This document shows positions 947 through 38,288 of a stretch of 64,000 nt of DNA, piece after piece (the stretch's first letter is position 1; every line of letters starts with the position of its first letter). Below the pieces are notes generated by a model. The model was not told the DNA's origin and ran no database searches. It saw nothing but the letters and a program-made list of their open reading frames with translations. Origin of the DNA: Nitrospirota bacterium (GTDB taxonomy: Bacteria; Nitrospirota; UBA9217); NCBI GenBank assembly GCA_963740085.1, contig CAVUCU010000003.1:160001-224000 (forward strand). Reading direction: 5' to 3'. Position numbers and translations under genes: made by a program.

Positions 947-1130
947 ACCACAGAGACACGGAGACACTGAGAAAAGATAACTATTTATTGACGAGAGATT
1001 CTTCAGTCGCTCACGCTCCTTCAGAATCACAAAATGACGGATTCAATAATCTTTTTTCTCCCTTTCCCCCTCTTCTCCCTTTCTCCTTTATTATTTTAAT
1101 ATTTTCTCTGAGTCTCTGCGTCTCCGCGGT
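947..1130. repeat. Intergenic bipartite inverted repeat of 8-9-mer units, with nested REP-like motif and TTCTCC tract
   Basis: 947-975 ACCACAGAGACACGGAGACACTGAGAAAA versus reverse complement of 1102-1130 ACCGCGGAGACGCAGAGACTCAGAGAAAA (23/29 by hand). Confidence 0.8.
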
Positions 1131-1140
1131 AAAGGCGACC

Positions 1141-2712
1141 TTACAGATCATTTCCCGAATACGACTGATTAAAGCTCTTGTTGCATACCGGGAAATCGGG
1201 GACGATGTTCCCGTGGATGCACTGCTCCAGTCCGAGCCAGTTCAGGCTCGAGGGGTCCCTGACCATGCAGCGATTGATCTCCCCCTTCGGCCCCGACTGG
1301 ACCCAGTAAATGATCTCCCCCCGCCATCCCTCGACTGCGGCGAATCCGGACCTGTCCGGGGCCGGTGCGTTGACGGGAACGCTGACCTTTCCGGTCGGCA
1401 GGGTCTTCAGGAGCTCGCGGATGATGCGGACCGAATCACGGACCTCTTCCACCCTGACCCATGCCCGCGAATGGACATCACCTGAAACGAGCACCGGTAT
1501 GGTCACCCTGATGCGGTCATAGGGAGAAAAGGGATTATGGATACGGCAGTCGAGGTTCAAACCGCTGGCCCGCGCCACAAAACCCGTCATGCCAAGGTCC
1601 CGCGCCTTTTCGGACGAGAGAATGCCGGTGTCCCTCACCCGGTCTTCGACCGAAGAGTTCTCATCGTAGATGATCACGAGCCGCTCGAATTCCTTTGCAA
1701 GCCAGTCCATTTCCGAAAGGATCGTCGCAACACCTCCTGCATCGATATCGACGTCTACCCCTCCGGGAACGATCTTATCCATCATGAACCGGTGTCCGAA
1801 AAGAGTCAGGTTCGTGCGAAGCAGGATCTCTTTGAGCCGATGAAATTGATACAGGAGGAACGCAAAGGCCACGTCATTGCATATGGCGCCAAGATCGCCA
1901 ATATGGTTGGCGATGCGTTCGCGTTCGAGAAACAACGCGCGAAGCCACAGCGCACGGTCCGGAGGGATACAGTCCGTCATGGCCTCCACTGCGCGGGAAT
2001 AGGTCAGGCAGTGCGCCGCGGTCGTATCTCCGGAAACCCGGCCGGCCAGGCGAAATGCCTCTTGCCATGTCAGGGACTCGAACCGCTTTTCTATCCCTTT
2101 GTGCACGTAACCGAGTCTTGCTTCAAGGTTGAGGATATCCTCACCCATGGCCTGAAAACGGAAATGGCCGGGCTCGATGATCCCCGCGTGCACCGGGCCC
2201 ACCGGTATCTCATAGACGCCCTCTCCTTCTGCGCGTATCCAGCGGTATTCGCCGTAAACCCGCGCCAGCCGCTGCGAAGCGTCAAAGGACTTTCTGAGCG
2301 GCCAGGCGTCCTCAGGCCAGTCCTCGTGCTTTATCCAGGGACGTGGGTCCGGGTGCCCGATGGGGATCACACCCATGAGACTCCTCATCTGGCGCTCGAA
2401 CCGGTACGCAGGAACGAACTTTTTCGTCAGGCTCGGGAATGTCGGGTCGTCAGCAGGCGCACTGGTTTTTATGACAAGGTATTCCGACTCCTTCCGATAG
2501 CAGGCGTATATCCCGAACCCCCTGTTGAACAGGGTCTCGTCCGATGCCCACTCGGCCGCGAGCAGGGCGTAGTCTTTCTTGAGCGCCTTTGCCGCTACGG
2601 CGAACTTTTCCCGGGGAACCATGAGAGATGTCACTGATGCGGGATGCAGAGATCCATCCTGCGTCGCGTCGGTTCCGAGGGCCGCTATGACTAACTCCTG
2701 CAATCTGCTCAT
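1141..2712 (-). CDS. hyfG: Ehr/hydrogenase-4-like large subunit (HyfG/HycE, NuoC-D-like) lacking Ni-binding Cys, cluster B
   Basis: Starts MSRLQELV at ATG2712 (ATGA overlap with the hyfF stop). Contains GPVHAGIIEPGHFRF, RVSGDTTAAH where hydrogenases have RxCxxC, and C-terminal DFPVCNKSFNQSYSGNDL. Confidence 0.88.
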   Translation of the reverse strand: MSRLQELVIAALGTDATQDGSLHPASVTSLMVPREKFAVAAKALKKDYALLAAEWASDETLFNRGFGIYACYRKESEYLVIKTSAPADDPTFPSLTKKFVPAYRFERQMRSLMGVIPIGHPDPRPWIKHEDWPEDAWPLRKSFDASQRLARVYGEYRWIRAEGEGVYEIPVGPVHAGIIEPGHFRFQAMGEDILNLEARLGYVHKGIEKRFESLTWQEAFRLAGRVSGDTTAAHCLTYSRAVEAMTDCIPPDRALWLRALFLERERIANHIGDLGAICNDVAFAFLLYQFHRLKEILLRTNLTLFGHRFMMDKIVPGGVDVDIDAGGVATILSEMDWLAKEFERLVIIYDENSSVEDRVRDTGILSSEKARDLGMTGFVARASGLNLDCRIHNPFSPYDRIRVTIPVLVSGDVHSRAWVRVEEVRDSVRIIRELLKTLPTGKVSVPVNAPAPDRSGFAAVEGWRGEIIYWVQSGPKGEINRCMVRDPSSLNWLGLEQCIHGNIVPDFPVCNKSFNQSYSGNDL

Positions 2713-4158
2713 TTCAACAACCCCACTGCCGTAGTGAACCAGCCGGCAAGAAATTTCGGTATGTACAGGCCGAGAACAAGGACCACCAGCATGTGCAGGA
2801 TCACCGGGATATGCGCCGCCTTGATCATATGCTGATAGGCGGGCATCTCTCCCGCGACCATGGGCTGGACCTTTCGGAAAAGGGCCGCAAAGGACACCCC
2901 AAGCCCCAGAAGGAGGAACGGGCGCAAACAACGGCGCATCCTTGATCGTTGCCGTAAGGATCAGGAACTCGCTCGTAAACACCCCGAAGGGCGGCATGCC
3001 GACTATTGCCATCACCCCGATCGCCATCCCCCACCCCACGAGAGGATTGCCCCTGATGAGGCCTTTGATCGAGTCCATGTCCTGCGTTCTGTGCATTTGA
3101 GACGCATGTCCCACCGTGAAGAAGATGGAAGACTTTGTCAGACTGTGGACCAGCATGTGAAGCAAGGCCCCGAAGGTCGCTACCGGCCCGCCCAGACCGA
3201 AGGCGAACGTGGCGATGCCCATATGCTCAATGGAAGAATAGGCAAACAACCGCTTGATGTCCTTTTGACGAAGAAGGGAAAAAGATGCAACGATGATCGA
3301 GAGGATGCCGAAGCCCATCATGATGTCCCCTGAATGGTGGGTGCCCGTGGACCCGTCCACGAGGACCTTGCACCGGACCAGCGCGTACAGCGCGATATTC
3401 AGCAGGAGCCCCGAGAGCACCGCCGAGATGGGTGTGGGCCCTTCGCTGTGGGCATCGGGAAGCCAGTTATGGATCGGCACAAGCCCCACCTTGGTGCCGT
3501 ACCCGACCATCAGGAACACAAAGGCCAGGGACAAAATCGTCGGCTCGAGCTGATCGCTCACCTTGCTCAGGTTCGTCCAGTGGAGGGCCGCGCCGCCGGC
3601 GCCGAGCACCTTTTCCGCGGCAAAGTACAAGAGCACGGTCCCGAACAGTGCAAGGGCGATTCCCACGCCGCAGAGGATAAAATATTTCCAGGCAGCCTCG
3701 ATTGCCGCGGGTGTACGGTAGAGAGACACGAGCAGGACCGTGGAGAGCGTGGCCAGTTCCATGGCGATCCAGAGGATGCCGACGTTGTTCGTCAGGAGGC
3801 ACAGCAGCATGGCAAAGATAAAGAGCTGGAACATGGCGTGATAGAAGCGAATCCGCTTGGAACCGATCGTGCCGTGTTCCCGTTCGCGGCGCATGTACCT
3901 TCTGCTGAAAATAGCGGTGGTCATGGAGACGAACGCGGTGAGCACGGTGAGGTAGACACTGAAGGCGTCAACGAAGAAGAAGTTGTCGCCGGCCAGTATC
4001 GGCCCCTGCTCGTAGACCTCGAGCGCCAGTACGAGGCTCGTCACGAACGTGGCGGCAGAGCCGAGGATGTTTATCTCGGGCGCGAACTTCCGGTCGCCGA
4101 TAAAGGCGAGCGCCAGGGCCGCGAACAGCGGAACGACCAAGAGGATGAGAAGGGTCAT
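2709..4158 (-). CDS. hyfF: Hydrogenase-4 subunit F-like antiporter subunit, cluster B; one frameshift at about 2920
   Basis: Motifs EAAWKYFILC, GYGTKVGLVPIHNWLPDAHSE and AYSSIEHMG. The true C-terminus (PFLLLGLGVSFAALFRK...) is in ORF 2709..2939; the G run at 2920-2922 has one extra base. Confidence 0.85.
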
Positions 4159-4172
4159 TTACACCTCAATAT

Positions 4173-4276
4173 GGGTCAATAAAGTCTATAGAGTTGATAG
4201 AGTTTGTAGAGTCTGTCGAGCCATAAATAATTTTAACTCGATGAACTCCCTGCACTCTACGAACTCTATAATCTCT
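4173..4276. repeat. Intergenic bipartite inverted 9-mer tandem repeat
   Basis: AAGTCTATA GAGTTGATA GAGTTTGTA GAGTCTGTC ... AACTCGATG AACTCCCTG CACTCTACG AACTCTATA. Confidence 0.75.
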
Positions 4277-4277
4277 T

Positions 4278-4943
4278 TCAATCTTCTTCCTTCAACCTCG
4301 CCATCTGGTCCACATCCAGGCTGTCAAAGGTGGTGCTGATGTGAAAAAAGAACATCCCGAAGATGAACGCCGCGATCAACAGGTCCAGGGCCACTCCCAG
4401 CTCGACCACCAGGGGCATGCCGTAGGTTGCGCTCGTTGCGGCGAACAGGAGCCCGTTCTCCATGGCAAGGAACCCGATGATCTGGGTGACCGCGTGCTTG
4501 CGCGTGATCATCATCAGGAACCCGAGCATGACCGTGGCGAGGGCCACCGCGAGCGTGGACCGGGTCACGAGGGTCGAAAGTTCCCTGATGGGGGCCGTAA
4601 GATGGTACGAAAATATCACGAGGATGATCCCCATCAGCATCGTGGTAGGGATGTTCACAATTGTCTCCACTTCCTTATGTATCTTGAGCTTCACGATCAA
4701 CCTATGTAAAATATAAGGCAGCAGTACTACCTTCATGGAAAGCGTCAGCACTGACGAGATGTACAGGTCATGCACTCCTCCCACATACCCCACCGTGGCG
4801 GTGCTCACGGCAAGCAGAAAACCCTGAAGCGCAAACAAGTGCAAAAGGGCGTTCATCCTGCGCTGTACCAGGAGGCCGAAGGCCGTCAGGAGGATCAGGG
4901 CCGCCAGAAGACTGTTGATCTGCGCTGCAAGCTGCATGTTCAT
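4278..4943 (-). CDS. hyfE: Hydrogenase-4 membrane subunit E-like, cluster B
   Basis: Motifs QIIGFLAMENG and GMPLVVELGVALD; position in operon. Confidence 0.88.
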   Translation of the reverse strand: MNMQLAAQINSLLAALILLTAFGLLVQRRMNALLHLFALQGFLLAVSTATVGYVGGVHDLYISSVLTLSMKVVLLPYILHRLIVKLKIHKEVETIVNIPTTMLMGIILVIFSYHLTAPIRELSTLVTRSTLAVALATVMLGFLMMITRKHAVTQIIGFLAMENGLLFAATSATYGMPLVVELGVALDLLIAAFIFGMFFFHISTTFDSLDVDQMARLKEED

Positions 4944-4972
4944 ATCGTTCCTCACACAGACAAATGCTCTTT

Positions 4973-5095
4973 ACCGCCAAGGCGCAAAGGACGCAAAGGA
5001 AACCTTGAAATTTGACCTCAACCCTTCGCGCTCTTCGCGCCTTCGCGGTTCAAAGCCTTTGATTTGGCTTTCTTCATGTCTCCGCGACTCCGTGG
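4973..5095. repeat. Intergenic bipartite inverted repeat (CGCRAAG units) plus orphan half-arm
   Basis: 4973-4999 ACCGCCAAGGCGCAAAGGACGCAAAGG versus reverse complement of 5023-5049 ACCGCGAAGGCGCGAAGAGCGCGAAGG (22/27 by hand). Confidence 0.8.
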
Positions 5096-5106
5096 AAAAA
5101 AACAAA

Positions 5107-6051
5107 CTACTCCAGCATGAAATACGAAAGCATCCCGAGCGTGGCGAATAGGAACGCGCTCCCCAGGAATTCGGTAATGCGGAAGATCCTCATCTTCGCC
5201 ATGCCGGTTTCGATCAGCACCAGGGCCGCCCCCACGAACCCGAGTTTGAGCATCAGGATGGGAAACGCGGAGACGACCGATGCCAGGTCATCATTCAAGG
5301 CAATGCCCAGCGGGAAAAAGGACGCGATCCCCAGGACAACAAAGAGAAAGAGTTTCATCATGCTCGACCATTCGATGAGCGCCAGATGTCTGCCGGAATA
5401 CTCCAGGATCATGGCCTCGTGGATCATGGTGAGTTCGAGATGCGTGGCGGGATTGTCCACCGGCACCCTCCCCGTCTCGGCCAGCGCGATGAAGATGAAT
5501 GCCAAGAGGGCGAACACGAGTGACGGCCTCAGCAGGGAATGTCCCTGCGAAATGACCAGCACGATCTGGGACAACGATGTGGATTTGCCGACCAGCGAGA
5601 CGGCAAAAACAGCCATGAGCATGGCGGGCTCTGCCAGAGAGGCGATGGTCATCTCCCGGCTCGAACCCATGCCGCCGAAGGCGGTGCCTATGTCCATGCC
5701 CGCCAGCGCGAGAAAGAACCGTGCTATCGCAAAGAGCGCCACGAGGGCGATCACGTCCGCGGTAGCTGAAAAAAGCAGATCCGTTGACAGCATGGGGATG
5801 ATGCCGCCCGCCATGACCGAGACGCCGAATACCAGATACGGCGTAAAGCGGAATATCCACGAGGCATTCTCCGCCAGGACAACGTCCTTTGACAGAAGTT
5901 TCCTGATGTCCCGGTAAGGCTGGAGCAGGCTCGGGGCCGTGCGACCCTGGAGCCAGCACTTCACCATCTTCACCCAGCCCGTGAACAGGGGCGCCATGGC
6001 CAGCAGAAGAATAATCTGCGCTATCTCCAGAATAAACGCGTTGATCAGCAA
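5107..6051 (-). CDS. hyfC: Complex I subunit 1 family membrane subunit (HyfC/HycD/NuoH), cluster B
   Basis: Motifs GTAFGGMGSSRE and AETGRVPVDNPATHLELTMIHEAMILEYSG. Confidence 0.9.
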   Translation of the reverse strand: MLINAFILEIAQIILLLAMAPLFTGWVKMVKCWLQGRTAPSLLQPYRDIRKLLSKDVVLAENASWIFRFTPYLVFGVSVMAGGIIPMLSTDLLFSATADVIALVALFAIARFFLALAGMDIGTAFGGMGSSREMTIASLAEPAMLMAVFAVSLVGKSTSLSQIVLVISQGHSLLRPSLVFALLAFIFIALAETGRVPVDNPATHLELTMIHEAMILEYSGRHLALIEWSSMMKLFLFVVLGIASFFPLGIALNDDLASVVSAFPILMLKLGFVGAALVLIETGMAKMRIFRITEFLGSAFLFATLGMLSYFMLE

Positions 6052-6138
6052 TGGAAAGCTCCTAACCCCGAGAAGCCGACGTCCTCACGCCGCAGTCTCG
6101 GGAAATCCTCTGCAAGATAATAAACATGCATTGACGGC

Positions 6139-8184
6139 TCACCTCAGAAATATCAGCAGTACGACGATCGTCACGAACGAATAAATGAGATAGACCTGGA
6201 TATGGCCATGCTGCATCCTTCCGATCCGTCTCGAAATCCAAAAGCTTGCGACAACGACAGGCTGGTACAACCAGACCCAGAAGCGGTCCCTCACCTTGAG
6301 ATGGTAATGCAGCCGCTCGGGGAAGGCCGGATGGGTCGCCGGCGGGAGCTGACGCACGCGCTCCTTGATGTTGAAGAGATACCCGAAGATCCTCCGAAGA
6401 GGCATGGCAAACGAGGTGGCCGTGTACTGCATCCGGTTGGTGACCTTTTCGAATCCGCAGTCCCAAAGCGGCATGCGGCGAATGGTTCCGGGGCGTGTAT
6501 GGAGCAACAGATAGGTCGCCACCACGACCGACAGGATGCCCAGGAAAGCGATGGGCGCCGAATAGGAGGCGCGCGCAGCGGCAATCGGCGTGAGCCACAT
6601 CCAGCCGAAACCCGATGCTGACGCGGCGATCGTGCCGCCCACCAGCTCCTCGGCAATAGGGTCCATCCACCTGATCATGAATGTGGGCAGGATACCGAGG
6701 CCAAGACAGGTGAGAGCCCCAAGCAGCATGCCGATGCGCATGGACCAGTCCACTTCATGGACACGGACAGGATGATGTCCACGCTGGTGTCCCAGAAAGG
6801 TTACGCCGAATGCCTTTACGAAACAGGCTGCCGCCAGCGCGCTCGTCAGTGCCAGGAGCGCGGCCCCCAGCGGGATAAGCAGGTTCAGGAGCGGACTGGG
6901 AAGCGCGGGTGACAGCAGGAACGCCTGATAGGTCAGCCATTCCGATACGAACCCGTTAAATGGCGGCAGTGCCGATATCGAAATGCACCCGATCAGAAAG
7001 AAAACAGCGGTCCAGGGCATGAAGCGAATGAGGCCGCCCATCTCCTCCATATTCCGCTCATGCGTGGCATGAAGCACGGCGCCCGCTCCCATGAAGAGCA
7101 GCCCTTTGAACATGGCATGGTTAACGGTGTGATAGAGACCGGCGATGAGCGCGAGGGCGGCCAGCAGGGACATGTCGAAGGAGGTGAAGATCATCGCAAG
7201 CCCGATGCCGATGAGGATGATGCCGATGTTCTCCACGGAATGATATGCAAGGAGCCTCTTCAGATCATGCTGCATCAGCGCATACAGAACACCCATGACC
7301 GCGGACACCAGCCCGAACACCAGAACGAGGGCGCCCCACCACCAGGGGAAAACGCCGATCAGGTCGAAGACGACGCGCACGATGCCGTAGATGGCCGTCT
7401 TAAGCATTACGCCGCTCATAAGAGCGGAGACGTTCGAAGGCGCGACCGGATGGGCCTCGGGCAGCCAGACATGAAGCGGTATCACACCGGCCTTGGCGGA
7501 GAACCCGAAGAAGGCGAGCAGAAACGCGATTGAAGCCCAGCCAGCGGGGAGGTCTGCTTCACGCATGGCGTCGAATGTGTAACCTTCAAATCCCTTGAAC
7601 CCGGTTGCCAGGCCGGCCATGATCCCGAAGGAGAGGAGGATCGCGATCGCCCCCACGTGCGCGACGACCAGATAGAGGAAGGCGGCCCTTCTGTTCTCAA
7701 TTCGCTCATCTTCAAAAAGCACCAGGAAGTACGAGGCAGCCGCCATCATCTCCCAGGCGATCAGGAAGAAGAACGCATCGTCGGCCAGGACCACGAGGAA
7801 CATCCCCGCGAGAAAGAGCGAATAAAATACGACAAGACTGGTCACCGACCGGTGCCCCAGGTAACCCTTGACATATCCGAGAGAGTAGATGGATACAAAA
7901 AAAGCGAGCAGTCCGACGATCACGAGAAAGAAACCGGACAAGAGATCGAGCCGAAGATGAAACGGCAGGTCGGGCAGGCCCAGAGGCACGATGACCTGGT
8001 AAGGAGTGCCGCTCGATACCGCCCAGATACCGGCGACCGTCGCCAGCAGGGAAGCGATCGTGGTGAAGGAAAAACCGAGTGTGATGAGAAGTCTCTGGTT
8101 CCGACGGAGAAACGGCGTCAGCGCAAGCGAAAACAGAAGCACCGCAAACGATGAGGATATCAAGCTGATGGGTGAAAGATCCAC
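6139..8184 (-). CDS. hyfB: Hydrogenase-4 subunit B-like antiporter subunit, cluster B
   Basis: Motifs KAGVIPLHVWLPEAHPVAPS, LLAYHSVENIG, ALPPFNGFVSEW and WDCG...RMQYTA. Confidence 0.9.
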   Translation of the reverse strand: MDLSPISLISSSFAVLLFSLALTPFLRRNQRLLITLGFSFTTIASLLATVAGIWAVSSGTPYQVIVPLGLPDLPFHLRLDLLSGFFLVIVGLLAFFVSIYSLGYVKGYLGHRSVTSLVVFYSLFLAGMFLVVLADDAFFFLIAWEMMAAASYFLVLFEDERIENRRAAFLYLVVAHVGAIAILLSFGIMAGLATGFKGFEGYTFDAMREADLPAGWASIAFLLAFFGFSAKAGVIPLHVWLPEAHPVAPSNVSALMSGVMLKTAIYGIVRVVFDLIGVFPWWWGALVLVFGLVSAVMGVLYALMQHDLKRLLAYHSVENIGIILIGIGLAMIFTSFDMSLLAALALIAGLYHTVNHAMFKGLLFMGAGAVLHATHERNMEEMGGLIRFMPWTAVFFLIGCISISALPPFNGFVSEWLTYQAFLLSPALPSPLLNLLIPLGAALLALTSALAAACFVKAFGVTFLGHQRGHHPVRVHEVDWSMRIGMLLGALTCLGLGILPTFMIRWMDPIAEELVGGTIAASASGFGWMWLTPIAAARASYSAPIAFLGILSVVVATYLLLHTRPGTIRRMPLWDCGFEKVTNRMQYTATSFAMPLRRIFGYLFNIKERVRQLPPATHPAFPERLHYHLKVRDRFWVWLYQPVVVASFWISRRIGRMQHGHIQVYLIYSFVTIVVLLIFLR

Positions 8185-8238
8185 GTCCCTGCCTCCACAA
8201 CTATCCGTGCATCTGTGAGCGAAAGCCGATCTAAATTT

Positions 8239-8768
8239 TCAGGTTCTTTTCGTGCAGGAATCTATCAGCTGGGAAAGCCCCAGCAGGATGGCCGTGGGAG
8301 TCGGCGGACACCCGGGGATATAACTGTCAACAGGGATTACGTTCGCCGCGCCGTTCGTAACGGCGTAACTTCCCTTATATATTCCTCCGTCCTTTGCGCA
8401 GTCGCCGCAGGCGACCACCAGCCTTGGCTCCGGCGTCGCGATATACGTTCTTTTGAGCGCCAGTTCCATCTGTCGCGACACCGGACCGGTCACGAACAAC
8501 ACATCGGCATGTCGCGGTGATGCGACAAAATCGATGCCGAACCGCTGAATATCGTAGACGGGATTAGTGAGCGCCGTGCATTCCCATTCACAAGCGTTGC
8601 AGGAACCTGCATCTATGTGCCTGATCCGGAGCGACCTGTTAAAGATTTTATCAATGTTTTTCTGAAAGTCAACAATCTTCGCCGCCTGCTCGGGAGTAAC
8701 AGTGAATCCCTCGGGAAACGGGATGACTTTCTTTTCTTGATTATATTTTTAATGATCTCTTTAAACAT
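8239..8768 (-). CDS. hyfI: Ehr/hydrogenase-4-like small Fe-S subunit, cluster A; frameshift at about 8730
   Basis: The frame upstream of ORF 8239..8502 reads KVIPFPEG...RSLRIRHIDAGSCNACEWEC...SPRHADVLFVTGP...GDC...GCPP. ATG8768 (MFKEIIKNIIK) is one frame off. Confidence 0.82.
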
Positions 8769-8787
8769 AATTTACACCCTGCGTTAT

Positions 8788-8890
8788 GCAGACTGAAGCC
8801 TGCGGCTACCCGCGAGTCATTTATCTTTTCCTGACCTCTGATTTCCCGACTCCGAACTTCGAACTCCTAACTCCGAACTTCTCCCATCTC
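8788..8890. repeat. GTAG-type REP-like hairpin plus heptamer tandem tract (half element)
   Basis: Reverse complement of 8788-8809 is GTAGCCGCAGGCTTCAGTCTGC. 8845-8879 reads CCCGACT CCGAACT TCGAACT CCTAACT CCGAACT. Confidence 0.65.
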
Positions 8891-10459
8891 TCACATGTCC
8901 GTCCCTGAATACGACAAATTAAAGCTCTTGTTGCAGAGCGGGAAATCGGGCACGATGTTCCCATGCACCGCAAAAGGCACCGCGGGCCAGTTGCAGTACG
9001 ACGGCGAACGGAGCTTCACCCGGAGCGGTTTCCCGTCCTTATCCGCCATGACCCAGTAGAAGAGCGATCCGCGCGGCGATTCGACATATCCCAGCGAAGA
9101 GGCATACGGTGCAGCCTGTTTCGCCGGAACGGCCAGACCACCTTTATAACCGCTTTCGATGAGCTCGTGGATCATGGATATGGAACATTCTATTTCTTCA
9201 GACCTGATCATCATGCGTGCAAACACGTCTCCCTTTTCCAGGGTATGCGATTCAAAGATCAGGCGGTCGTAGAGCAGATGGGGATGGGCCTTTCTCATAT
9301 CGTCGGTCAGGCCCGATGCACGGGCGGCCACGCCCGTGACGCCGAACTTCCGCGCGAGGTCCTTCGACAGCCGTCCGGTGTTCTGCATCCGCTCGATGTG
9401 CGATACCGAGCCCAGCAGCAATTTCATCAGCTCTTTGTATTCCCGGGTGACGATATCGAGGGTCTTGAGAACATCATCGGCCAGGGCAAAGACATCTTTT
9501 GTGACGCCGCCGATCACGTTCACGCCGCGCAGATACCTGCTGCCCGTGAGCCGTTCATTGAGCTGCATGAGCCGTTCCTTGATGACCGCGCCGTTCATAT
9601 ACCCGAGCGCGAATGCCGTTCCGGCGCACATGTTCCCGATATCGCCGATATGGTTGTAGAGCCGTTCGAGCTCGAGAACAAGGGTCCTGACCGCAGCCGC
9701 CTTTTCAGTGATCCCGACGCCCGTCATTCGTTCAACAGCCATGCAGTACGCCGTCCCGTGCGCAAAGGACGAGGTGCCCGACACGCGTTCAGCGAGCTTC
9801 ACTCCTTCGACAAACCCGAGTTTTTCGAAATGCTTCTCTGTGCCCTTGTGCGTGTAGGACAATCTCGGTTCGAGGAAGAAGATCGTCTCTCCCACGGCAC
9901 TGAACCTGAAGTGCCCGGGTTCAATGATGCCCGCATGCACCGGCCCGACGGGGATCTCGACGATGCCCTCGCCGGCAACTTCCATGAACGGATGAGGGAC
10001 CTTTTGCAGTGTCCCCTCACCCCACTCTTTGAGATCTGATCCGGAAAGAGACCAGTCCTTGCGAAGCGGATGAGAATCCGCGGGGAACGCCTCATGAAAA
10101 ACAAGTCTGCGCTGGTCCGGATGCCCTTGCGGGTTGAGGCCGAACATATCCATGATCTCGCGCTCGTACCAGTGGGCGGCGGGGATATGCGGCGTCAGCG
10201 ACGGGAACCGGGGATCGGATTCCTTCACCGGCAGGACAATGAGGAAGAACCGGTCTACACCGGGCACGGTGAATACGGTATGGACCCTGAACACCCCGTC
10301 CCGCTCACGCTCGTCCGTCGCGAACATCAGGCGCAGCAGGGCGTGCTTCTCCGCGGACAGATAAAGGCAGACGTCCCTGAAATCGTCGCGCTTGACCTCG
10401 ATTGAGGACTCGTTCAAATAGTCTACGGTCCTGACCGCCTTATGAAACACCTTGTCCAT
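8891..10459 (-). CDS. hyfG: Ehr/hydrogenase-4-like large subunit lacking Ni-binding Cys, cluster A
   Basis: Motifs AHWYEREIMDMFG, GPVHAGIIEPGHFRF, ERVSGTSSFAH (no CxxC) and C-terminal DFPLCNKSFNLSYSGTDM. Confidence 0.9.
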   Translation of the reverse strand: MDKVFHKAVRTVDYLNESSIEVKRDDFRDVCLYLSAEKHALLRLMFATDERERDGVFRVHTVFTVPGVDRFFLIVLPVKESDPRFPSLTPHIPAAHWYEREIMDMFGLNPQGHPDQRRLVFHEAFPADSHPLRKDWSLSGSDLKEWGEGTLQKVPHPFMEVAGEGIVEIPVGPVHAGIIEPGHFRFSAVGETIFFLEPRLSYTHKGTEKHFEKLGFVEGVKLAERVSGTSSFAHGTAYCMAVERMTGVGITEKAAAVRTLVLELERLYNHIGDIGNMCAGTAFALGYMNGAVIKERLMQLNERLTGSRYLRGVNVIGGVTKDVFALADDVLKTLDIVTREYKELMKLLLGSVSHIERMQNTGRLSKDLARKFGVTGVAARASGLTDDMRKAHPHLLYDRLIFESHTLEKGDVFARMMIRSEEIECSISMIHELIESGYKGGLAVPAKQAAPYASSLGYVESPRGSLFYWVMADKDGKPLRVKLRSPSYCNWPAVPFAVHGNIVPDFPLCNKSFNLSYSGTDM

Positions 10460-11949: not shown

Positions 11950-11951
11950 TT

Positions 11952-12782: not shown

Positions 12783-12791
12783 TTAAACCGT

Positions 12792-28739: not shown

Positions 28740-28747
28740 GTCTTCTT

Positions 28748-29095: not shown

Positions 29096-29103
29096 ATTAG
29101 GGC

Positions 29104-30066: not shown

Positions 30067-31515
30067 ATGAAAGAACTGCTCAAACAGCTTCCGTCAGTGG
30101 ATGATGTGTTGAAGGAAGACAGGACGAAACAGTGGATCGAATCGCATCCCCGCGTGCTCGTACTCGAAGCGATCAGGAGCGCGATCGACGCGAGACGGAC
30201 GGCAATTCTCCAGACCGCGGACAGCAAAACGACCCGAAAGATCGATGATGCGCTTTTTTCCATCGAAGGCGTCCTGAATCACGCAGAAATTATTCTCAAG
30301 GAGCTGTCCGAACCGAGCCTCAGGCCTGTCATCAACGCCACCGGGGTGATCGTTCATACCAACCTCGGCCGTTCCCTGCTGTCGGAGAAGGCCATCCAGC
30401 GGGTTGTCGAGGTCAGCAGGAGCTATTCGAATCTCGAGTACGATATTCCTGCAGGCGAGCGCGGCAAACGGCATGTTCACGTCGAGGGCATCCTGAAGCG
30501 GCTGACGGGCGTCGAGTCCGCCACGGCCGTGAACAACAACGCGGCTGCCGTACTCCTCTGCCTGAACACCCTTGCCCGCGGCAAAGAGGTCGTCGTCTCG
30601 CGCGGAGAGCTCGTCGAGATCGGCGGGTCCTTCCGCGTTCCGGACGTAATGGAGCGGAGCGGCGCTGTCCTTCGCGAGGTGGGGACCACGAACAAGACCC
30701 ATCTCAAGGATTACGAGAAGGCGATCAACGAAAAAACCGGCCTCCTGTTGAAAGTACACACGAGCAATTACAAAATTGTCGGGTTCACCAAAGAAGTCTT
30801 TCCCGAGGAGCTTGCGAAGCTCGGCAAGAAACGCAACGTGCCCGTGATGTGGGACCTGGGCAGCGGCAGCTTCGTGAACCTCAGTACGTACGGGGCAGGC
30901 GACGAACCCACGGTGCAGCAGGCTGTGAATTCCGGCGTGGACGTGCTCACCTTCAGCGGCGACAAGCTGTTGGGCGGGCCGCAGGCAGGCATGATCCTCG
31001 GCAAAAAGGCATACATCGAACCGATCCGCTCCAATCCCCTTGCCCGCGCGCTTCGACTCGATAAAATGACCCTTGCGGCGCTCGACGCCACGCTCAGCCA
31101 GTATCTTGACATGAACCGGGCCATTCGTGAGATCCCCACGCTCTGGATGTTGACCCAGCCGCTTTCCGAGATCAGCCGCAAGGCCGAACTGCTGGCATCG
31201 GGCCTCAGGCAGATCGACAATGCCGGTCTTGCCGTATCGATCCAGGACGACACTTCCCAGAGCGGCGGCGGCGCCCTGCCCACGGGCAATTTCCCCACCA
31301 GGACGGTGTGTGTTCGGCATCCCCGGATGAGCGCGAACCAGATCGAATCCCGCCTGCGCACGGGCAAACCGCACATCATCTCGCGCATCAAGGAAGGGAT
31401 GGTCATCTTCGACCCCCGAACGCTGAAGGATGAAGAGATCGGGAAGATCGTGGAAGCGGTGGGAGAAATAATGCTGGGGTCAGGGGTCAGTAGTCAGGAG
31501 AGCATTAGCCATTAG
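30067..31515 (+). CDS. selA: L-seryl-tRNA(Sec) selenium transferase
   Basis: Motifs INATGVIVHTNLGR, VNNNAAAV, SRGELVEIGGSFRVP and FSGDKLLGGPQAG. Confidence 0.96.
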   Translation: MKELLKQLPSVDDVLKEDRTKQWIESHPRVLVLEAIRSAIDARRTAILQTADSKTTRKIDDALFSIEGVLNHAEIILKELSEPSLRPVINATGVIVHTNLGRSLLSEKAIQRVVEVSRSYSNLEYDIPAGERGKRHVHVEGILKRLTGVESATAVNNNAAAVLLCLNTLARGKEVVVSRGELVEIGGSFRVPDVMERSGAVLREVGTTNKTHLKDYEKAINEKTGLLLKVHTSNYKIVGFTKEVFPEELAKLGKKRNVPVMWDLGSGSFVNLSTYGAGDEPTVQQAVNSGVDVLTFSGDKLLGGPQAGMILGKKAYIEPIRSNPLARALRLDKMTLAALDATLSQYLDMNRAIREIPTLWMLTQPLSEISRKAELLASGLRQIDNAGLAVSIQDDTSQSGGGALPTGNFPTRTVCVRHPRMSANQIESRLRTGKPHIISRIKEGMVIFDPRTLKDEEIGKIVEAVGEIMLGSGVSSQESISH

Positions 31516-31695
31516 CCTCTGCTCATGTTTTCTTCTATCTATCATTGTCGGCCATTCTACTATTGTAACAAAAACTAAAACACTCAATCGTGTCATTGCG
31601 GGCGACCAACGGGAGCGCAGTACTCGCTTCTCGAATCAGCCATACACAAAACGTGCTCAAAATCTACTGACCCCTGACCCCTGAACCCTGAACTC
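31476..31695. repeat. Bipartite inverted heptamer repeat (GGGGTCA) spanning the selA-selB junction, with nested REP-like motif
   Basis: 31476-31493 GGGGTCAGGGGTCAGTAG is the exact reverse complement of 31664-31681. TGTCATTGCG...GGGAGCG lies at about 31591-31617. Confidence 0.85.
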
Positions 31696-31696
31696 A

Positions 31697-33625
31697 ATGA
31701 AATACATCATCCTCGGCACTGCCGGACATATCGACCACGGGAAATCAAGCCTTGTCAAGGCCCTCACCGGCACGGACCCGGACCGCCTCAAGGAAGAGAA
31801 GGAACGCGGCATCACCCTTGACCTCGGGTTCGCGTCGCTGGACCTTCCGGGCGGCAACCGCCTCGGCATCGTGGACGTGCCCGGCCACGAAGGGCTCATC
31901 AAGAACATGCTCGCCGGCGTCGGCGGCATGGACATCGTGATGCTCGTGGTCGCCGCGGACGAAGGCATCATGCCCCAGACCCTCGAACATCTTGCCATCT
32001 GCGATCTCCTTCACGTGAAAAAGGGACTGATCGTCCTGACGAAGATGGATATGGTGGACAAGGACTGGCTCACGCTCGTGCAGGACGAGGTCCGCGATGT
32101 GGTCAAAGGCACGTTCCTCGAAAAATCCCCACTCGTTCCGGTCTCGTCCAAGACCGGCGAGAACCTGCCGCTCCTCATTCAGGAGCTTGGCAAACTCGCC
32201 GCTGACGTGACTCCCAAGTCATCGAACGGCATCCTTCGTCTTCCCATCGACCGGGTCTTTACCATGAAGGGTTTCGGCACGGTCATCACCGGCACCCTGC
32301 TATCCGGCACGATCAGTGCGGAACAGGAAGTCGAGGTCCTGCCGAAGGGAACCAGAACAAAAGTTCGCGGTCTCCAATCCCACAACCAGGCGGCCAAGCG
32401 CGCCGTGGCGGGTCAGCGTACTGCCGTGAACCTTCAGGGGATCGAGAAAGACCAGCTCTCCCGCGGAAACACCATCGTGAACCCCGGGTTCTTCAAGCCG
32501 ACCAAGACCCTCGACGCAAAGCTCGACCTTCTCAAACAGGCGCCCCGCGGGCTCAAGACCGGCTCGCGTGTCCGGTTCTACAACAGCACGCAGGAGGCCA
32601 TCGGCAGGATCACGCTCCTCGGGACGAACCAGCTCGCGCCGGGCGAGGAGGCCTTTGTACAGCTCCGGCTTGAACAACCCGTGATCGTCCAGCATGGAGA
32701 CCGGTATATCCTGCGTTTCTACTCTCCCATGGAAACCCTCGGCGGCGGCATGGTGCTGAATCCCCATACGCGGCGTCACAAGAATTCGACGATGAAGCAG
32801 TCCCTCGAGAACCTCGGCATTCTCGAAAAGGGAAAAGCCGAAGACCGGCTCGCGCTCTTGATATCCGGCAAAGGCCTTGCCGGGATGGAAGAGACCGAGG
32901 CCGTCGGCGTCATCGCCGCTGACAAGCAGGAGACCACTTCGGCGCTCGCGTCCCTGTCGCAGAAAAAAACGGTCCTGCGGGTTGACAATCTCTACGTGCA
33001 CACCTCCCATCTTGCGACGCTCGAGAAAAAGACTCTTGATCTCATCAGGTCATTCCACAGGGACAATCCGCTCAAGGCCGGCCTGGACAAGGAAGAGCTC
33101 AAGGGCATGCTGCGCATGAGGATAAACCCGAAGGTCCTGAACATGACCATTGACGGCCTTGTAAAGAAGAAGGCCTTGGAGACCGAAGGCTCCAAGCTCA
33201 GGGTCCCGGGGTTCAAGGCAGCAGGCGGTAAGATCAATGACGAGGTCAAGGACAAGATCGTTGAAACCATCAAAAAAGGCGGCACCCAGCCGCCGGTCAG
33301 GGAGGAATTCCCCGCTCTTTTCAATATCTCGGACCGGGACGCCAGGGACCTGATGAAGCTGCTCGCTGATGAAGGCCGCACGGTCAGGATCACAGACTCG
33401 CTCCATCTTGACAAAGAGGTGGTTGACAGGATCAGGACCGATCTCAAAAAGTATCTTGAGGTAAAGAAAGAGATCACCATGGGCGAGTTCCGCGACCTCG
33501 CCAGGACCTCCCGTAAGTTCGCGGTCCCGATCATGGAATACTTCGATTCTCAGAAGCTGACGCAACGGGTGGGTGACAAGAGGGTGCTGACGGGGGTAAA
33601 CTCTTTCCGGGTTACTTCCTATTAA
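31697..33625 (+). CDS. selB: Selenocysteine-specific elongation factor
   Basis: [27 protein letters not shown]; C-terminal winged helix [20 protein letters not shown]. Confidence 0.96.
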
Positions 33626-34718: not shown

Positions 34719-35993
34719 ATGATGGATACATCCATTACAAAAACGCTCTTCCGTTCCCTGCGCCATCGAAACTTCCGTTTGTTCTGGTCCGGCCAGCTTG
34801 TGTCCCTCATCGGCACCTGGATGCAGAACGTAGCTCAGGCGTGGCTGGTGCTGGAGTTGACCCATTCATCACTGAAGCTCGGCATTGTTTCCGCGCTCCA
34901 GTTTCTGCCCATGCTTTTCCTCTCGCTCTTCACCGGACCGTTCATCGATTACTTCGACAAACGGAAGATCATCATCGGGACCCAGGCCGCGCTTATGACC
35001 CTGGCCTTCGCGCTGTCGATCCTGGTCTGGACAGGGACCGTGCAGTACTGGCATGTGGTGGTCCTCGCCACGCTGCTCGGCATCGTGAACACGATCGACA
35101 TGCCTGCCAGGCAGGCGTTCATCATCGACCTGGTGGGGAAGGAAGACCTCATGAACGCCATCGCGCTGAACTCGTCCGTCTTTAATTCCGCCAGGGCGGT
35201 CGGGCCGGCGCTTGCGGGTTTGCTGATCACCGCCGCCGGAACCGCTGCCTGTTTTTTCGTGAATGGTTTGAGTTTTCTCGCTGTCCTGGCGAGCCTTTTG
35301 TTCATGAACATCGAGTCCGCCTCGCGCAGGGCGAAGCCCGTCTATAACGTACTGCTGGACATGAGGGAGGCCATCGGTTACGTTCGGGCAACTCCCGCGG
35401 TCCTTACTACGATCCTTCTGGTCTCGGTGGTCAGCATCTTCGGGACGAATTTTAATGTGCTCGTCCCGGTGTTCGCAAAAATGGAACTGAACCGTGATGC
35501 AGCGGCCTTCGGCCTGCTCATGTCCTCATTCGGCGCGGGCGCGTTGATCGGGTCGGTATCGCTTGCAATATTGAGCCAATGGGGTCCAAGACAGTCCCTT
35601 CTGCTCGGCGGCGGTATGGGGCTTTCGCTGTTCCTGATGCTTATCGGTCTGCAGAGATCATTCGCCCTGACCGCCGTCCTGCTCGCCCTTGCGGGCCTAT
35701 CCATGATCATCTTCTTCGGCATGGCCAATACCACGGTCCAGCTGAATACCGAAGATCGCTTGCGCGGCCGTGTTATGAGCCTTTACATTCTGTCCTTCGG
35801 CGGGCTGACGCCTTTCGGCAGCATGTTCGCCGGTGCGGTCGCCCACTGGATCAAAGCGCCCCTCACCTTCGCCCTGGGCGGACTGCTTTGCGGGGCCGTT
35901 TTTCTTGTCGTCATCGTGAAGCGCAGGTCTCACCGCGGAGGCGCGGAGACACCGGGAACTGACCTCGAGAAAGAAAATAAAGGTTTACGGTAG
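34719..35993 (+). CDS. MFS transporter (MFS_3/DUF894 type)
   Basis: RNFRLFWSGQLVSLIGTWMQ, NAIALNSSVFN and LRGRVMSLY. Confidence 0.9.
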   Translation: MMDTSITKTLFRSLRHRNFRLFWSGQLVSLIGTWMQNVAQAWLVLELTHSSLKLGIVSALQFLPMLFLSLFTGPFIDYFDKRKIIIGTQAALMTLAFALSILVWTGTVQYWHVVVLATLLGIVNTIDMPARQAFIIDLVGKEDLMNAIALNSSVFNSARAVGPALAGLLITAAGTAACFFVNGLSFLAVLASLLFMNIESASRRAKPVYNVLLDMREAIGYVRATPAVLTTILLVSVVSIFGTNFNVLVPVFAKMELNRDAAAFGLLMSSFGAGALIGSVSLAILSQWGPRQSLLLGGGMGLSLFLMLIGLQRSFALTAVLLALAGLSMIIFFGMANTTVQLNTEDRLRGRVMSLYILSFGGLTPFGSMFAGAVAHWIKAPLTFALGGLLCGAVFLVVIVKRRSHRGGAETPGTDLEKENKGLR

Positions 35994-36066
35994 TTTTATT
36001 CCGGATACATTAAAATAAAACTCTCAATTTTCCCGTACTTTCTCCGTGCCGCCGCATCTCCGCGGT
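35932..36066. repeat. Bipartite inverted repeat overlapping the MFS C-terminus
   Basis: 35932-35957 ACCGCGGAGGCGCGGAGACACCGGGA versus reverse complement of 36041-36066 ACCGCGGAGATGCGGCGGCACGGAGA (20/26 by hand). Confidence 0.7.
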
Positions 36067-36123
36067 CATCCATCGGCTTTCAACTTTTTTTACGAATGAA
36101 CCGGAATATGATATGATACTGTC

Positions 36124-38112
36124 ATGCAGAATCAGGAAATAACCATACTGCGAGAGCTGATCATCATTCTCGCCGTCTCGCTTCCCATCACCTACATCTT
36201 TCATCGGGCAAAACTGCCGGCGCTCGTGGGATTCCTGATCACCGGCGTGCTTATCGGTCCTTACGGCGCCGCCATTATAACCGAGACCCGCGTCGTTGAA
36301 CGGCTCGCTGACATTGGCGTCGTTCTGCTCCTGTTTACCATCGGACTCGAGTTCTCGATCGCCGACATCATGAGATCGGGCCGCCAGTTCCTGATCGGCG
36401 GCGGCACCCAGGTGCTGTTGACCATTGCCGCGGTCGCCGGCATCGCGCTCCTGCTCCACTATCCCCTGCCGCAGGCCGTGTTCTTCGGCTTTCTGGCGTC
36501 TCTCAGCAGCACCGCGATCGTGCTCAAGATGTATTCCGACCGTTCTGAGCTCGAGACGACCCATGGCAGGCTCGCGACGGGCATTTTGCTGTTTCAGGAC
36601 ATTGCCGTTGTGCCGATGATGCTCATGCTGCCGGTACTAGGAGAGGCGAGCGCGGCAGGCGAGGTCACCGTGCTGTCCGTACTCGTGTCTCTCGGCGAGG
36701 CTGTGCTCGGCCTTGTCGGTGTCTATTTTGCGGCGCGCCAGGTCGTGCCGTTCCTGCTCCACCAGGTGATACGGCTCAAGAACCGTGAGATGTTCTTTCT
36801 GCTCGTCGTCCTGCTCTGCCTCGGAGCTGCATGGATCACGTATAGCCTCGGTCTGTCGCTCGCCCTCGGCGCCTTCCTTGCGGGGCTTATCATCTCTGAA
36901 TCGGAGTACAGCCATCACATCGTTGCCGAAATCTTGCCGTTCCGCGATTACTTTGCGAGCATCTTCTTCATCTCCATCGGCATGCTGCTGCAGACGGACT
37001 ATTTTATGGCCCACTGGGTCCTTCTCGTTATCATTGCGCTTCTCCTTGTACTTTTGAAATCCGGGCTGGTGGCCGCGACCTCAACCCTGCTGCGTTATCC
37101 GGTCCGGAGTTCCCTGCTCGCGGGACTCGGCCTGGCGCAGATAGGTGAATTTTCATTTCTCCTGGCTCAGCAGGGCCAGATAAGCGGCCTGATGGGTCAC
37201 GACATTTTCCAGGTGTTCATCAACGCCTCCATCCTGAGCATGCTCGCCACTCCCTTCTTCATCCAGGCAGGCCCGTGGATCACGGGCCTGCTGCCGAACA
37301 TGACCCCTGAACAGAGTGAAAAAAGCTATGTGTGCTCACTCACCGGGCATACGATCATCGCGGGATACGGCTTGAACGGCAGGAACCTGGCCAAGACGCT
37401 CAAGGCCACTCACCTCCCCTATGTAGTGTTGGAAGTGAACGCCGATACCATACGGAAGGCGCGTGACGAGGGTGAGTCCATCATCTACGGCGATATCACG
37501 AGAAGGGACGTACTGCTGCGGGCGGGCACTGACTGCGCCAAGGTGATCGTGTTCGCCGTATCGGATTATGCCGCGACACGGATCGCCGTGCGCACGGTGC
37601 GTGAGCTCAACCCCGCCATATTCATTCTCATCCGCACGCGGTACGCGGCTGACGTCGACGAGCTCTACAAGGCCGGTGCAGATCAGGTGATACCCGAGGA
37701 GTTCGAAACGTCGATCGAGATCTTTTCGCGCGTGCTCCATGAATATCATGTCCCGAACAACGTCATCGCGAACCAGATCCAGCTCGTGCGGTTCGGGGGG
37801 TACAAGATGCTGCGCGGGTATTCACTGGACCAGGAGAACCTCGGCCGCATTGCGGCGCTCTTCGCCGATGCGACCGTGGACCATATCCAGCTTGAGTCAG
37901 ATTCCCCCACGGTGGGCAGAACGCTCCGGGAGCTTGATCTCCGGAAGAATACCGGCGCTTCGGTCATTGCCATCGCGCGGAACGGTGAGGCGAATACGAA
38001 CCCGGGGCCCGACTTCATGTTGCAGCCCGATGATATTGTCGTGCTCATAGGCGGGCACAGGGAACTTGACGAGGCGATGAGCCTGTTGACAAAGAATAAA
38101 GCGAAGCAGTGA
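36124..38112 (+). CDS. CPA2 (Kef-type) cation:proton antiporter with TrkA-N and TrkA-C domains
   Basis: GVVLLLFTIGLEFS, SLSSTAIV, LLFQD, AQIGEFSF and IIAGYGLNGR; C-terminal RCK-C. Confidence 0.9.
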   Translation: MQNQEITILRELIIILAVSLPITYIFHRAKLPALVGFLITGVLIGPYGAAIITETRVVERLADIGVVLLLFTIGLEFSIADIMRSGRQFLIGGGTQVLLTIAAVAGIALLLHYPLPQAVFFGFLASLSSTAIVLKMYSDRSELETTHGRLATGILLFQDIAVVPMMLMLPVLGEASAAGEVTVLSVLVSLGEAVLGLVGVYFAARQVVPFLLHQVIRLKNREMFFLLVVLLCLGAAWITYSLGLSLALGAFLAGLIISESEYSHHIVAEILPFRDYFASIFFISIGMLLQTDYFMAHWVLLVIIALLLVLLKSGLVAATSTLLRYPVRSSLLAGLGLAQIGEFSFLLAQQGQISGLMGHDIFQVFINASILSMLATPFFIQAGPWITGLLPNMTPEQSEKSYVCSLTGHTIIAGYGLNGRNLAKTLKATHLPYVVLEVNADTIRKARDEGESIIYGDITRRDVLLRAGTDCAKVIVFAVSDYAATRIAVRTVRELNPAIFILIRTRYAADVDELYKAGADQVIPEEFETSIEIFSRVLHEYHVPNNVIANQIQLVRFGGYKMLRGYSLDQENLGRIAALFADATVDHIQLESDSPTVGRTLRELDLRKNTGASVIAIARNGEANTNPGPDFMLQPDDIVVLIGGHRELDEAMSLLTKNKAKQ

Positions 38113-38203
38113 AATAACGTGCGGCGTTCTTTTCCTCAGGCCCGGCTTCTCATCTTCCCTCTCTTTAATGAGGATAAGCTGGGACTATAAACAAATGCAA
38201 TTT

Positions 38204-38288
38204 ACCACGGATGCGCACTAGACAAAAGGCGAGAAAAGAATTCAAGATTTAGTCCTTTAATCAGCGTCAATCCGTGTTAATCCGTGAC
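38204..38288. repeat. Degenerate bipartite repeat (CACGGAT / ATCCGTG 10-mers)
   Basis: ACCACGGAT... facing AATCAGCGTC AATCCGTGTT AATCCGTGAC. Confidence 0.6.

Follow-up and report, generated by a model that had tools for sequence, protein, structure and literature searches.

A 64,000-nucleotide (nt) stretch of DNA from a Nitrospirota bacterium (contig CAVUCU010000003.1, positions 160,001 to 224,000; here called the window) carries short arrays of degenerate tandem oligomers in the spacers between its host genes, either alone or as two inverted arms. In our judgement these sites probably belong to a superfamily of small selfish elements of foldback type that is spread over the whole genome and occurs with and without a cargo gene; the window sites are cargo-less, non-autonomous-like forms. 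We analyzed the genome to which the window belongs (G000; 3.46 Mb in 7 contigs, 54% G+C; the window is G000:C3:160001-224000) together with the genomes of relatives (among them G002, G004, G006, G008, G012, G013, G014 and G018).

Arrays in the window were located with Tandem Repeats Finder and arms with an inverted-repeat scan, and every site was read by eye. A preliminary description of the window had listed 12 sites with arrays of tandem 7-10-mers, and the two programs together recover all 12. Tandem Repeats Finder reports arrays at 949-972, 1055-1124, 4188-4212, 4975-5047, 8849-8879, 11969-12003, 12746-12776, 13807-13848, 22357-22416, 22869-22984, 29990-30014, 31476-31691 and 38257-38286; the site at 35932-36066 has no such call and is found as an inverted pair of 40 nt with 70% complementarity. 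The sites are as follows (window coordinates; J1 to J10 are the ten junctions of two complex-I-like Ehr/Mbh-type gene clusters identified with Pfam at 385-15883, minus strand):

947-1130, J1: foldback element; purine arm of CACRGAGA units at 947-975 and pyrimidine arm at 1105-1130 (plus-strand reading).
1053-1090: lone pyrimidine array inside the loop of the J1 element, made of TTTCTCCC units.
4187-4276, J2: foldback hairpin of 9-mer units (ATAGAGTTG) with a short loop.
4973-5049, J3: foldback hairpin of CGCRAAGG units, from a dispersed family.
8849-8879, J6: lone arm, heptamer ACTCCGA on the plus strand; on the transcribed minus strand a GGAGTTC-type purine arm.
11969-12040, J8: weak foldback hairpin of ATTGGAR/ATTTGAG units (reverse-complement score 24).
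12746-12782, J9: purine arm of ATTGGAA units, pairing with 13812-13848 across the nuoH-like gene at 12880-13797.
13812-13848, J10: pyrimidine arm, partner of 12746-12782.
22355-22420: foldback hairpin of GCAAAGG/CGCAGAG units, upstream of glnE (19172-22303, minus strand).
22848-22985: foldback hairpin of AGTTCAG/AGTTCAT heptamers between glnE and the RNase R gene; divergent context by crude gene calls.
29873-30016: degenerate member of the approximately 25-copy CTCGCAGAG family (family B), left arm decayed.
31476-31691, in the selA-selB spacer: foldback element; arms of GGGGTCA heptamers, loop of 161 nt.
35919-36079: foldback element with CGCGGAG-type arms, between the major facilitator superfamily (MFS) and Kef-type genes.
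38204-38288: weak foldback element of CACGGAT-type units, just upstream of tRNA-Sec.

The sites beginning at 947, 4973, 22355, 29873, 35919 and 38204 are built from units of the type CRCRRAK, and the remaining sites are not. By our own count, at least one arm is present at seven of the ten Ehr junctions (J1, J2, J3, J6, J8, J9 and J10), the number given before, and the site at 8830-8890 is a lone arm, as had been noted. The integrative and conjugative element (ICE) in the window had been called free of such elements. No hairpin is reported there, but the ICE part does hold four weak unpaired arrays; the host part has 20 arrays and 7 hairpin loci. A crude gene caller assigns similar lengths of "intergenic" DNA to both, but it under-calls ICE genes, and the true spacer length of the ICE is therefore smaller than the figure used.

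The paired arms in the window are long and imperfect. One pair spans 37 nt (89%; 12746-12782 / 13812-13848, 1029 nt apart), and others span 34 nt (71%; 4187-4220 / 4237-4270), 26 nt (85%; 31476-31501 / 31663-31688, with a further 18 nt at 100% in the same element), 25 nt (84%; 22355-22379 / 22396-22420) and 20 nt (95%; 22869-22888 / 22965-22984). We folded the ten short sites with two arms as RNA and compared each with 200 dinucleotide shuffles. Seven of them are far more stable than their shuffles (z-scores from -3.0 to -7.75, with 0-2 of 200 shuffles as good): 4173-4280 (z = -6.4), 4965-5060 (-7.75), 22345-22425 (-5.3), 22845-22990 (-4.5), 31470-31700 (-4.4), 940-1140 (-3.35; 0/200 shuffles as good) and 35925-36070 (-3.0). 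The folds of 11950-12056 (-1.8), 38200-38290 (-1.8) and 29870-30018 (-0.6) are weak. An Rfam scan of window positions 1-39000 (E <= 1) returns tRNA-Sec only and no family matching the elements.

Are such arrays common in the rest of the genome? Intergenic DNA makes up 19.5% of G000, and its arrays greatly outnumber those in a block-shuffled genome (period 7: 257 versus 12; period 8: 142 versus 10; period 9: 161 versus 27; period 14: 73 versus 2). After merging, there are 721 intergenic arrays. A reverse-complement partner (score of at least 24, no more than 1.5 kb apart) is found for 212 of them, compared with 42 and 51 when the sequence is reversed or complemented as a control and with 91 direct matches. 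The shared architecture of long imperfect hairpins that had been proposed from the window is thus supported. The partners are mainly less than 150 nt apart, with a second group at approximately 330-450 nt, and each arm is typically 25-45 nt long and consists of three to six degenerate 7-10-mers in tandem. For each period, this one genome has more than 100 distinct units. The CRCRRAK type accounts for 131 arrays, nearly all with periods 8-10, and the other 590 are led by period 7. Arrays of the same unit cluster within 0.3-5 kb of each other (26 observed, 7.2 +/- 3.5 expected; 0/500 permutations as high). Near a contig end, G000:C1:2673-2757 is a pure GGGGTCA array of at least 12 consecutive units.

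We defined 125 hairpin loci in G000. Of 124 hairpins, 112 lie between co-directional genes, 8 between convergent and 4 between divergent ones; the baseline for co-directional spacers is 1751/2282. The purine-rich arm comes first in 119 of the 125. It does so on both strands because the elements are near-palindromic, and the order therefore belongs to the element itself, however it is oriented. Lone arms keep this layout: G-rich ones are nearer the upstream stop codon (83 versus 41) and C-rich ones nearer the downstream start (59 versus 39). Many lone arms are therefore probably halves of decayed hairpins. We also considered intrinsic terminators, and rejected them because few stems are followed by a T-run (at least six T in the 9 nt after the stem: 6/109 co-directional hairpins in sense, 4/112 in antisense) and because the arms are 25-45 nt long.

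The elements with arms 330-450 nt apart enclose small genes. These encode four-helix-bundle proteins (TIGR02436/PF05635), GxxExxY proteins (TIGR04256/PF13366) and one GIY-YIG protein. The preliminary description had stated that similar arms flank the first two kinds of gene, and this link holds. In G000, all 14 cargo loci lie between arms (8/8 four-helix-bundle, 6/6 GxxExxY), each with its own unit, the purine arm upstream and the pyrimidine arm downstream. PF13366 has the PD-(D/E)XK nuclease fold, and PF05635 is homologous to Avd, a reverse-transcriptase accessory protein. Several of the four-helix-bundle copies in G000 are broken; the one GxxExxY sequence that we inspected (G000:C1:323033-323377) keeps its D...E-x-K motif. 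A search of the cargo proteins with PADLOC gives no match to a defence-system family except a weak UzuA match for the GIY-YIG protein. The gene of that protein (G000:C4:482845-483048) interrupts a four-helix-bundle gene within an element with AAAGTGMCT arms (C4:482568-483350), leaving TIGR02436 halves at C4:482702-482827 and 483109-483288.

Cargo-bearing and cargo-less elements have both arms in common. The pyrimidine arm of the J3 hairpin (4973-5049) is identical over 27/27 nt to an arm of a GxxExxY element at G000:C1:323417-323443, and the approximately 25-copy CTCGCAGAG family shares both of its arms with another GxxExxY element. The TTTCTCCC unit type, which forms the lone array nested at J1, also makes up the arms of the GxxExxY element at G000:C4:111294-111635. 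Arms in addition frame ordinary host genes; besides the nuoH-like gene in the window, we find a nuoK-like gene, yajC and hisA framed in this way elsewhere.

To look beyond G000, we searched one genome per species with an alignment of three of its four-helix-bundle proteins, which returned 80 loci from Nitrospirota, Chloroflexota, Patescibacteria, Bacteroidota, Acidobacteriota, Bacillota, Planctomycetota, Cyanobacteria, Proteobacteria and one archaeon. Among the 77 TIGR02436 loci with both flanks, 67 have inverted arms at a score of at least 24, compared with 6 in the reverse control and 22 in the complement control. Tandem heptamers make up most of these arms, the median number of paired columns is 31, and the first arm has more G than C in 51 loci and less in 8. 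A control genome, that of Bacteroides thetaiotaomicron, likewise gave a match to TIGR02436. The flanking open reading frames (ORFs) lie on the cargo strand in 137 of 148 cases, and for the upstream neighbour in 71 of 75.

A second sample was taken from the relatives of G000: 20 top-scoring full-length loci of each cargo family, 1-2 per genome, with one GxxExxY locus dropped for its short flank. Arms are present at 19/19 GxxExxY and 17/20 four-helix-bundle loci, counts that are not independent because the loci come from related genomes. Units of the CRCRRAK type form 17 of the 19 GxxExxY arm pairs and none of the 17 four-helix-bundle pairs, and purine-first order prevails by 18 to 0 and 17 to 0, respectively. 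The arm type thus tracks the cargo: CRCRRAK 8-10-mers go with GxxExxY genes, and four-helix-bundle genes have other units, which are mostly heptamers. Array density also follows cargo content: per 100 kb, with samples of that size from 13 relatives, it is 19-41 in six of eight cargo-rich genomes and 7-13 in four cargo-free and two cargo-poor ones.

The sites had been suggested to be footprints of a mobile or intervening-sequence-like system. Comparisons between and within genomes bear this out: relatives have orthologous Ehr junctions that are unoccupied, occupied, or occupied by units of another family, element families are dispersed, and there are clean insertions with target duplications. 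Over the ten junctions in 14 relatives, spacer length varies from -34 to 339 nt, and the junctions of distant relatives are tight. Close relatives (88-92% identical coding DNA) have different unit families at the same junction. At J1, for example, the units are CRCRGAGA in G000, G004 and G018, GGACGAN in G006, CACGGAT in G008 and G012, and CGCAGAT in G013; in the related strain X4, 140 other letters replace 225 nt there, according to Logan contigs of four DNA runs, which are short and end at repeats. At J6, G002 has a complete GxxExxY-bearing element where G000 has the lone arm. Second elements are nested in loops at the Ehr junctions of relatives. The elements sit between a stop codon and the next ribosome-binding site, and the downstream ribosome-binding site is preserved in the relatives. 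In the J1 loop of the window, a 55-nt stretch (991-1045) is a nested small repeat, with 87% identity to G000:C1:630661-630714 and C1:758239-758291.

Within G000, 82 of the 125 hairpins have non-self matches, and some of the families are non-coding, small and dispersed. Two families each have approximately 23-25 full-length copies of 100-135 nt at unlinked loci, with 80-92% identity including the loops; copies of one family adjoin unrelated genes, and some members contain small nested inserts. Two window sites belong to multi-copy families: 4973-5049 has 7 genome matches spanning at least 70% of its length, and 29926-30016 aligns at 79-83% to other copies of family B. For 38204-38288 there is a single full-length relative (G000:C4:600672-600759, 74%). 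In several copies of families A and B, an insert of approximately 30 nt (GGCC...TTAG type) replaces or interrupts one arm:

Family A (G000): C1:461006, C4:404404, C4:392651, C4:704988.
Family B (G000): C1:1007715, C1:883503, C1:358336.

This insert recalls the "very small mobile repeats" that have reportedly been seen in cyanobacteria.

A comparison of G006 with G000 over 124 kb reveals clean indels that correspond to elements ending in GTAWCTRCTCAG...CTGAGYAGWTAC, with 8-bp duplications (CCTTTCTT, TTTGCATG). A loose search for the terminal-repeat pattern returns mostly chance matches (25 pairs versus 88 in a reversed-motif control), among which approximately five pairs with near-identical 8-bp flanks are judged real. 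G006 also has a 90-nt lone tandem array of GGACGAN units, flanked by TCAT direct repeats, inside a gene. The ortholog of this gene in the window (1141-4158, minus strand) encodes a 1005-amino-acid protein in which an antiporter-like subunit is fused to NuoC- and NuoD-like domains. The array lies exactly at the domain joint (approximately position 2710) and splits the gene into two ORFs, the upstream one gaining a repeat-encoded tail.

Could the sites instead be RNA elements under selection, i.e., mRNA stem-loops for processing or stability that set the amounts of Ehr and other subunits, with mobility as a secondary matter? The enrichment in co-directional spacers (112/124), the position between the stop codon and a preserved ribosome-binding site, the very stable stems predicted at seven window sites and the cargo genes that follow the direction of host transcription would all fit. 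However, relatives have empty orthologous junctions or junctions with unrelated units, and one and the same element family is found beside unrelated genes. The stems have no excess of G.U over A.C pairs, either on the cargo-sense strand (57 versus 73) or on the transcribed, host-sense strand (74 versus 81), and there is thus no visible sign that pairing is being preserved in the RNA. The two strands, sense and antisense, do not differ in fold stability (57 versus 55), and the cargo-less families A and B are inserted either way (10 versus 12 and 11 versus 10; the small family E, 0 versus 8). Taken together, these three results argue that complementarity is kept by copying at the DNA level and not by any visible selection on one RNA strand. 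We therefore consider selected RNA elements an unlikely explanation, and the earlier suggestion that the sites tune subunit stoichiometry is not sustained.

The control counts bear on a simpler account, in which slippage produces simple-sequence repeats whose inverted partners arise by chance or local duplication, with neither mobility nor a link to small genes. Degenerate units, variable copy numbers, many lone arrays and the local clustering of same-unit arrays are what slippage might leave behind, and among the long simple repeats of prokaryotes, heptanucleotide arrays form the commonest class (Mrazek 2007, as given in the available text of PMC4679880). Yet the excess of reverse-complement partners over both controls (212 versus 42 and 51), the fixed purine-first polarity (119/125), the full-length families with conserved loops at unlinked loci, the insertions with target duplications and the close ties to two gene families that differ in unit type make this account quite improbable.

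We give very little credence to operator-like sites for one or more global regulators, the reading that the available text of PMC2700814 gives for paired tandem oligonucleotides in Geobacter metallireducens: tandem units would suit a multimeric binder, but a single genome has more than 100 distinct units per period, the units are replaced at orthologous sites, and the sites are mostly inside operons and not at promoters, with only 4/124 hairpins between divergent genes. Break-repair scars, left by templated repeat addition in which both 3' ends of a double-strand break gain the same G-rich oligomer repeat before being joined, sometimes around a captured gene, seem just as improbable; they would explain why a purine-rich arm runs 5'-3' toward the centre on both strands and why units are shared within a site and differ between sites, and the four-helix-bundle cargo is indeed homologous to an accessory protein of reverse transcriptase, but no reverse transcriptase is linked to the elements, and the families with conserved loops and the elements with terminal repeats and target duplications point to copying of whole units and not to fresh synthesis at each site.

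If the sites are indeed selfish foldback elements, how might these work? Their arms enclose a short loop or one small gene, and on this reading the elements multiply and turn over in co-directional spacers, nest in each other's loops and spread locally. From the co-orientation of cargo and host genes we argue that cargo expression depends on host transcripts, presumably through read-through from host operons. Stems of 25-45 near-perfect pairs in a transcript are substrates of RNase III, and the RNA stems of the present elements are probably such substrates; RNase III may cut the long stem and release the insert, as in the intervening sequences (IVSs) of 23S rRNA. The cargo proteins may recognise the repeats of their own arms and promote spread or maintenance of the element, for example by nuclease-initiated copying between hairpins that share arms. 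Cargo-less copies would then be non-autonomous relatives of cargo-bearing elements.

It is tempting to go further, although we do so tentatively and with more doubt than conviction. The elements might be a pan-bacterial class of promoterless "intervening sequences" in operon transcripts and rRNA, protein-coding or empty, that ride on host read-through and are excised by RNase III at the stems formed by their tandem repeats. Their own small proteins would spread them by acting on DNA in hairpin or cruciform form, with a PD-(D/E)XK nuclease reading CRCRRAK units and an Avd-like four-helix bundle reading heptamers. If this is true, the purine-first rule may come from the copying chemistry, or from selection that disfavours a C-rich arm lying open as a Rho loading site, whichever way the element is oriented.

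Several observations weigh against selfish foldback elements as the explanation. At a score of at least 24, 509 of the 721 arrays have no detected partner arm, and 43 of the 125 hairpins are single-copy, including the window sites 22355-22420 (0 matches) and 22848-22985. Terminal inverted repeats with 8-bp target duplications are seen in one family only and at none of the window sites, for which the relatives offer no clean empty allele. The stems lack a G.U excess, as described above. In G008 and G014, both cargo-rich, arrays are present at modest density (38 kb sampled in G014). The genome-wide genes come from a crude codon-usage caller (approximately 80% coding), and the compared genomes are related to each other, a kinship that the statistics ignore. 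Finally, no transposase is tied to the elements. We considered an IS66-type transposase as the mobiliser of the GTAA-ended family and rejected it, as the domain DDE_Tnp_IS66 is not found in G000. The RAYT/REPIN reading (REP-associated tyrosine transposases, acting on hairpins of paired repetitive extragenic palindromic (REP) sequences) was rejected likewise, since the Y1 (RAYT-like) genes are flanked by other, non-dispersed repeats. There are four Y1_Tnp matches in G000, flanked by GGGGTCAGACTT-type repeats that occur only 6 times genome-wide. The Y1 (IS200/RAYT-like) transposase genes include three with the C-terminal helix-turn-helix part:

G000:C5:70076-70330.
G000:C1:370350-370679.
G000:C1:609567-609890.

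Their flanking inverted repeats, of the GGGGTCAGACTT or GGGGTCAAGTCTTG type, are not dispersed, and one copy has an in-frame TAG.

The present elements resemble the IVSs of 23S rRNA genes in several respects. In Leptospira, such an IVS carries a PF05635 gene and is excised by RNase III. Some PF05635-family proteins are encoded in large IVSs of 23S rRNA genes (PMC10053308, available text). The likeness lies in the cargo family (PF05635/TIGR02436), the inverted-repeat flanks and the sense orientation inside a host transcript: a PF05635 gene lies between inverted arms at 8/8 loci in G000 and at 67/77 others, the window sites being gene-less. In contrast to these IVSs, the present elements occur in mRNA and in rRNA operon spacers, their arms are tandem oligomers, most copies have no gene, and there is a second cargo family (GxxExxY) with its own arm type. 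We also considered an IVS inside the sole 23S gene of G000 (C5:95964-98965) and rejected it: the gene has no array of the arm-forming kind with a period of 7 to 10, and its sole call by Tandem Repeats Finder is an 11-nt unit, in 1.9 copies, at 96038-96058. The spacers of the only rRNA operon do contain tandem heptamer arrays and one hairpin, immediately outside this gene (C5:95838-95860 and 99074-99295).

The preliminary description held that the architecture matches no standard class of REP element, miniature inverted-repeat transposable element (MITE) or CRISPR array. For CRISPR and REP/REPIN this stands. The present 7-10-mers follow each other with no spacers between them and form paired inverted arms, unlike a CRISPR array, and the RAYT-like Y1 genes of G000 are not flanked by the present repeats. 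For MITEs the denial was too strong. Like MITEs and REPINs (for the latter, Bertels and Rainey 2011, PMC3116915, available text), the elements are small intergenic sequences that form hairpins, code for no protein and occur in multiple copies. Terminal inverted repeats with 8-bp target duplications are found in one family, several families reach approximately 25 copies, and the cargo-bearing relatives that share arms with cargo-less elements resemble autonomous/non-autonomous pairs. Unlike MITEs, the elements have arms made of short tandem units, many unit families per genome and a purine-first polarity; and where a MITE has a related autonomous element coding for a transposase, the cargo-bearing relatives encode PF05635, PF13366 or GIY-YIG proteins and no known transposase.

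Foldback (FB) transposons of Drosophila, which are eukaryotic and kilobase-sized, also have arms of short tandem repeats, whose lengths differ among copies and from one arm to the other, and a centre that is empty or gene-bearing. The likeness is in arm architecture only, an analogy with no homology implied. Cyanobacteria have heptameric short tandemly repeated repetitive (STRR) sequences, and small dispersed repeats are reported to have been described there by Elhai in 2008. Such heptamers share with the present arrays an intergenic position, large numbers per genome and a frequent location near start codons. TAACTGA heptamer repeats (PMC4679880) and Nostoc heptamers (10.1101/2022.06.06.494920) are treated in the available text of both reports as direct repeats or regulator sites, without inverted pairing, polarity or a link to PF05635/PF13366. 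In Geobacter metallireducens, pairs of four tandem octanucleotides lie on opposite strands at variable distance, and there are arrays of five heptanucleotides, with dozens of copies (Aklujkar 2009, PMC2700814, available text). To judge from that text, these are very probably the same kind of element; they are interpreted there as protein-binding sites, with no mention in the available part of mobility, cargo or polarity. Our literature search returned no description of this architecture or of a link to the PF05635 and PF13366 gene families.

Pfam scans of the window back up the gene setting assumed in the preliminary description. Besides the two Ehr clusters, they identify a TauE-family gene, glnE, the RNase R gene, selA, selB, the MFS gene and the Kef-type gene. 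Three further features deserve mention:

8239-8775, minus strand: NuoB-like gene of Ehr cluster 2.
25889-29652: "cassette array" of the preliminary description; small minus-strand ORFs with no Pfam match and 41-45% G+C, compared with approximately 55-58% around them.
38420-38518: tRNA-Sec, followed by an integrase gene at 38582-39655.

The NuoB-like gene reads through only with a frameshift in an A-rich run near 8715-8730. Its ATG at approximately 8770 is out of frame with the conserved body, and the ortholog in G002 is intact; the gene may contain a homopolymer error from assembly, be a pseudogene or undergo a programmed shift. The tRNA-Sec gene lies directly downstream of the selA-selB region, and the tyrosine-integrase gene begins 64 nt further (38420-39655 for the two). 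From this order, the integrative element appears to have used tRNA-Sec as its attachment site.

Among small bacterial proteins without an assigned function, the two cargo families (PF05635/TIGR02436 and PF13366/TIGR04256) rank with the commonest, and tandem heptamer arrays have been noted without explanation since the first cyanobacterial and Geobacter genomes. The framing by arms, the arm types specific to each family, the polarity and co-orientation, and the fast turnover of cargo-less copies together make one testable element class, in which the arm repeats are concrete candidate substrates for biochemistry on both protein families. Such a class accounts for much of the intergenic DNA in genomes of this kind. 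It is also a warning for annotators and assemblers, as these repeats break contigs and can split genes, and it offers a possible origin for the intervening sequences of rRNA genes.

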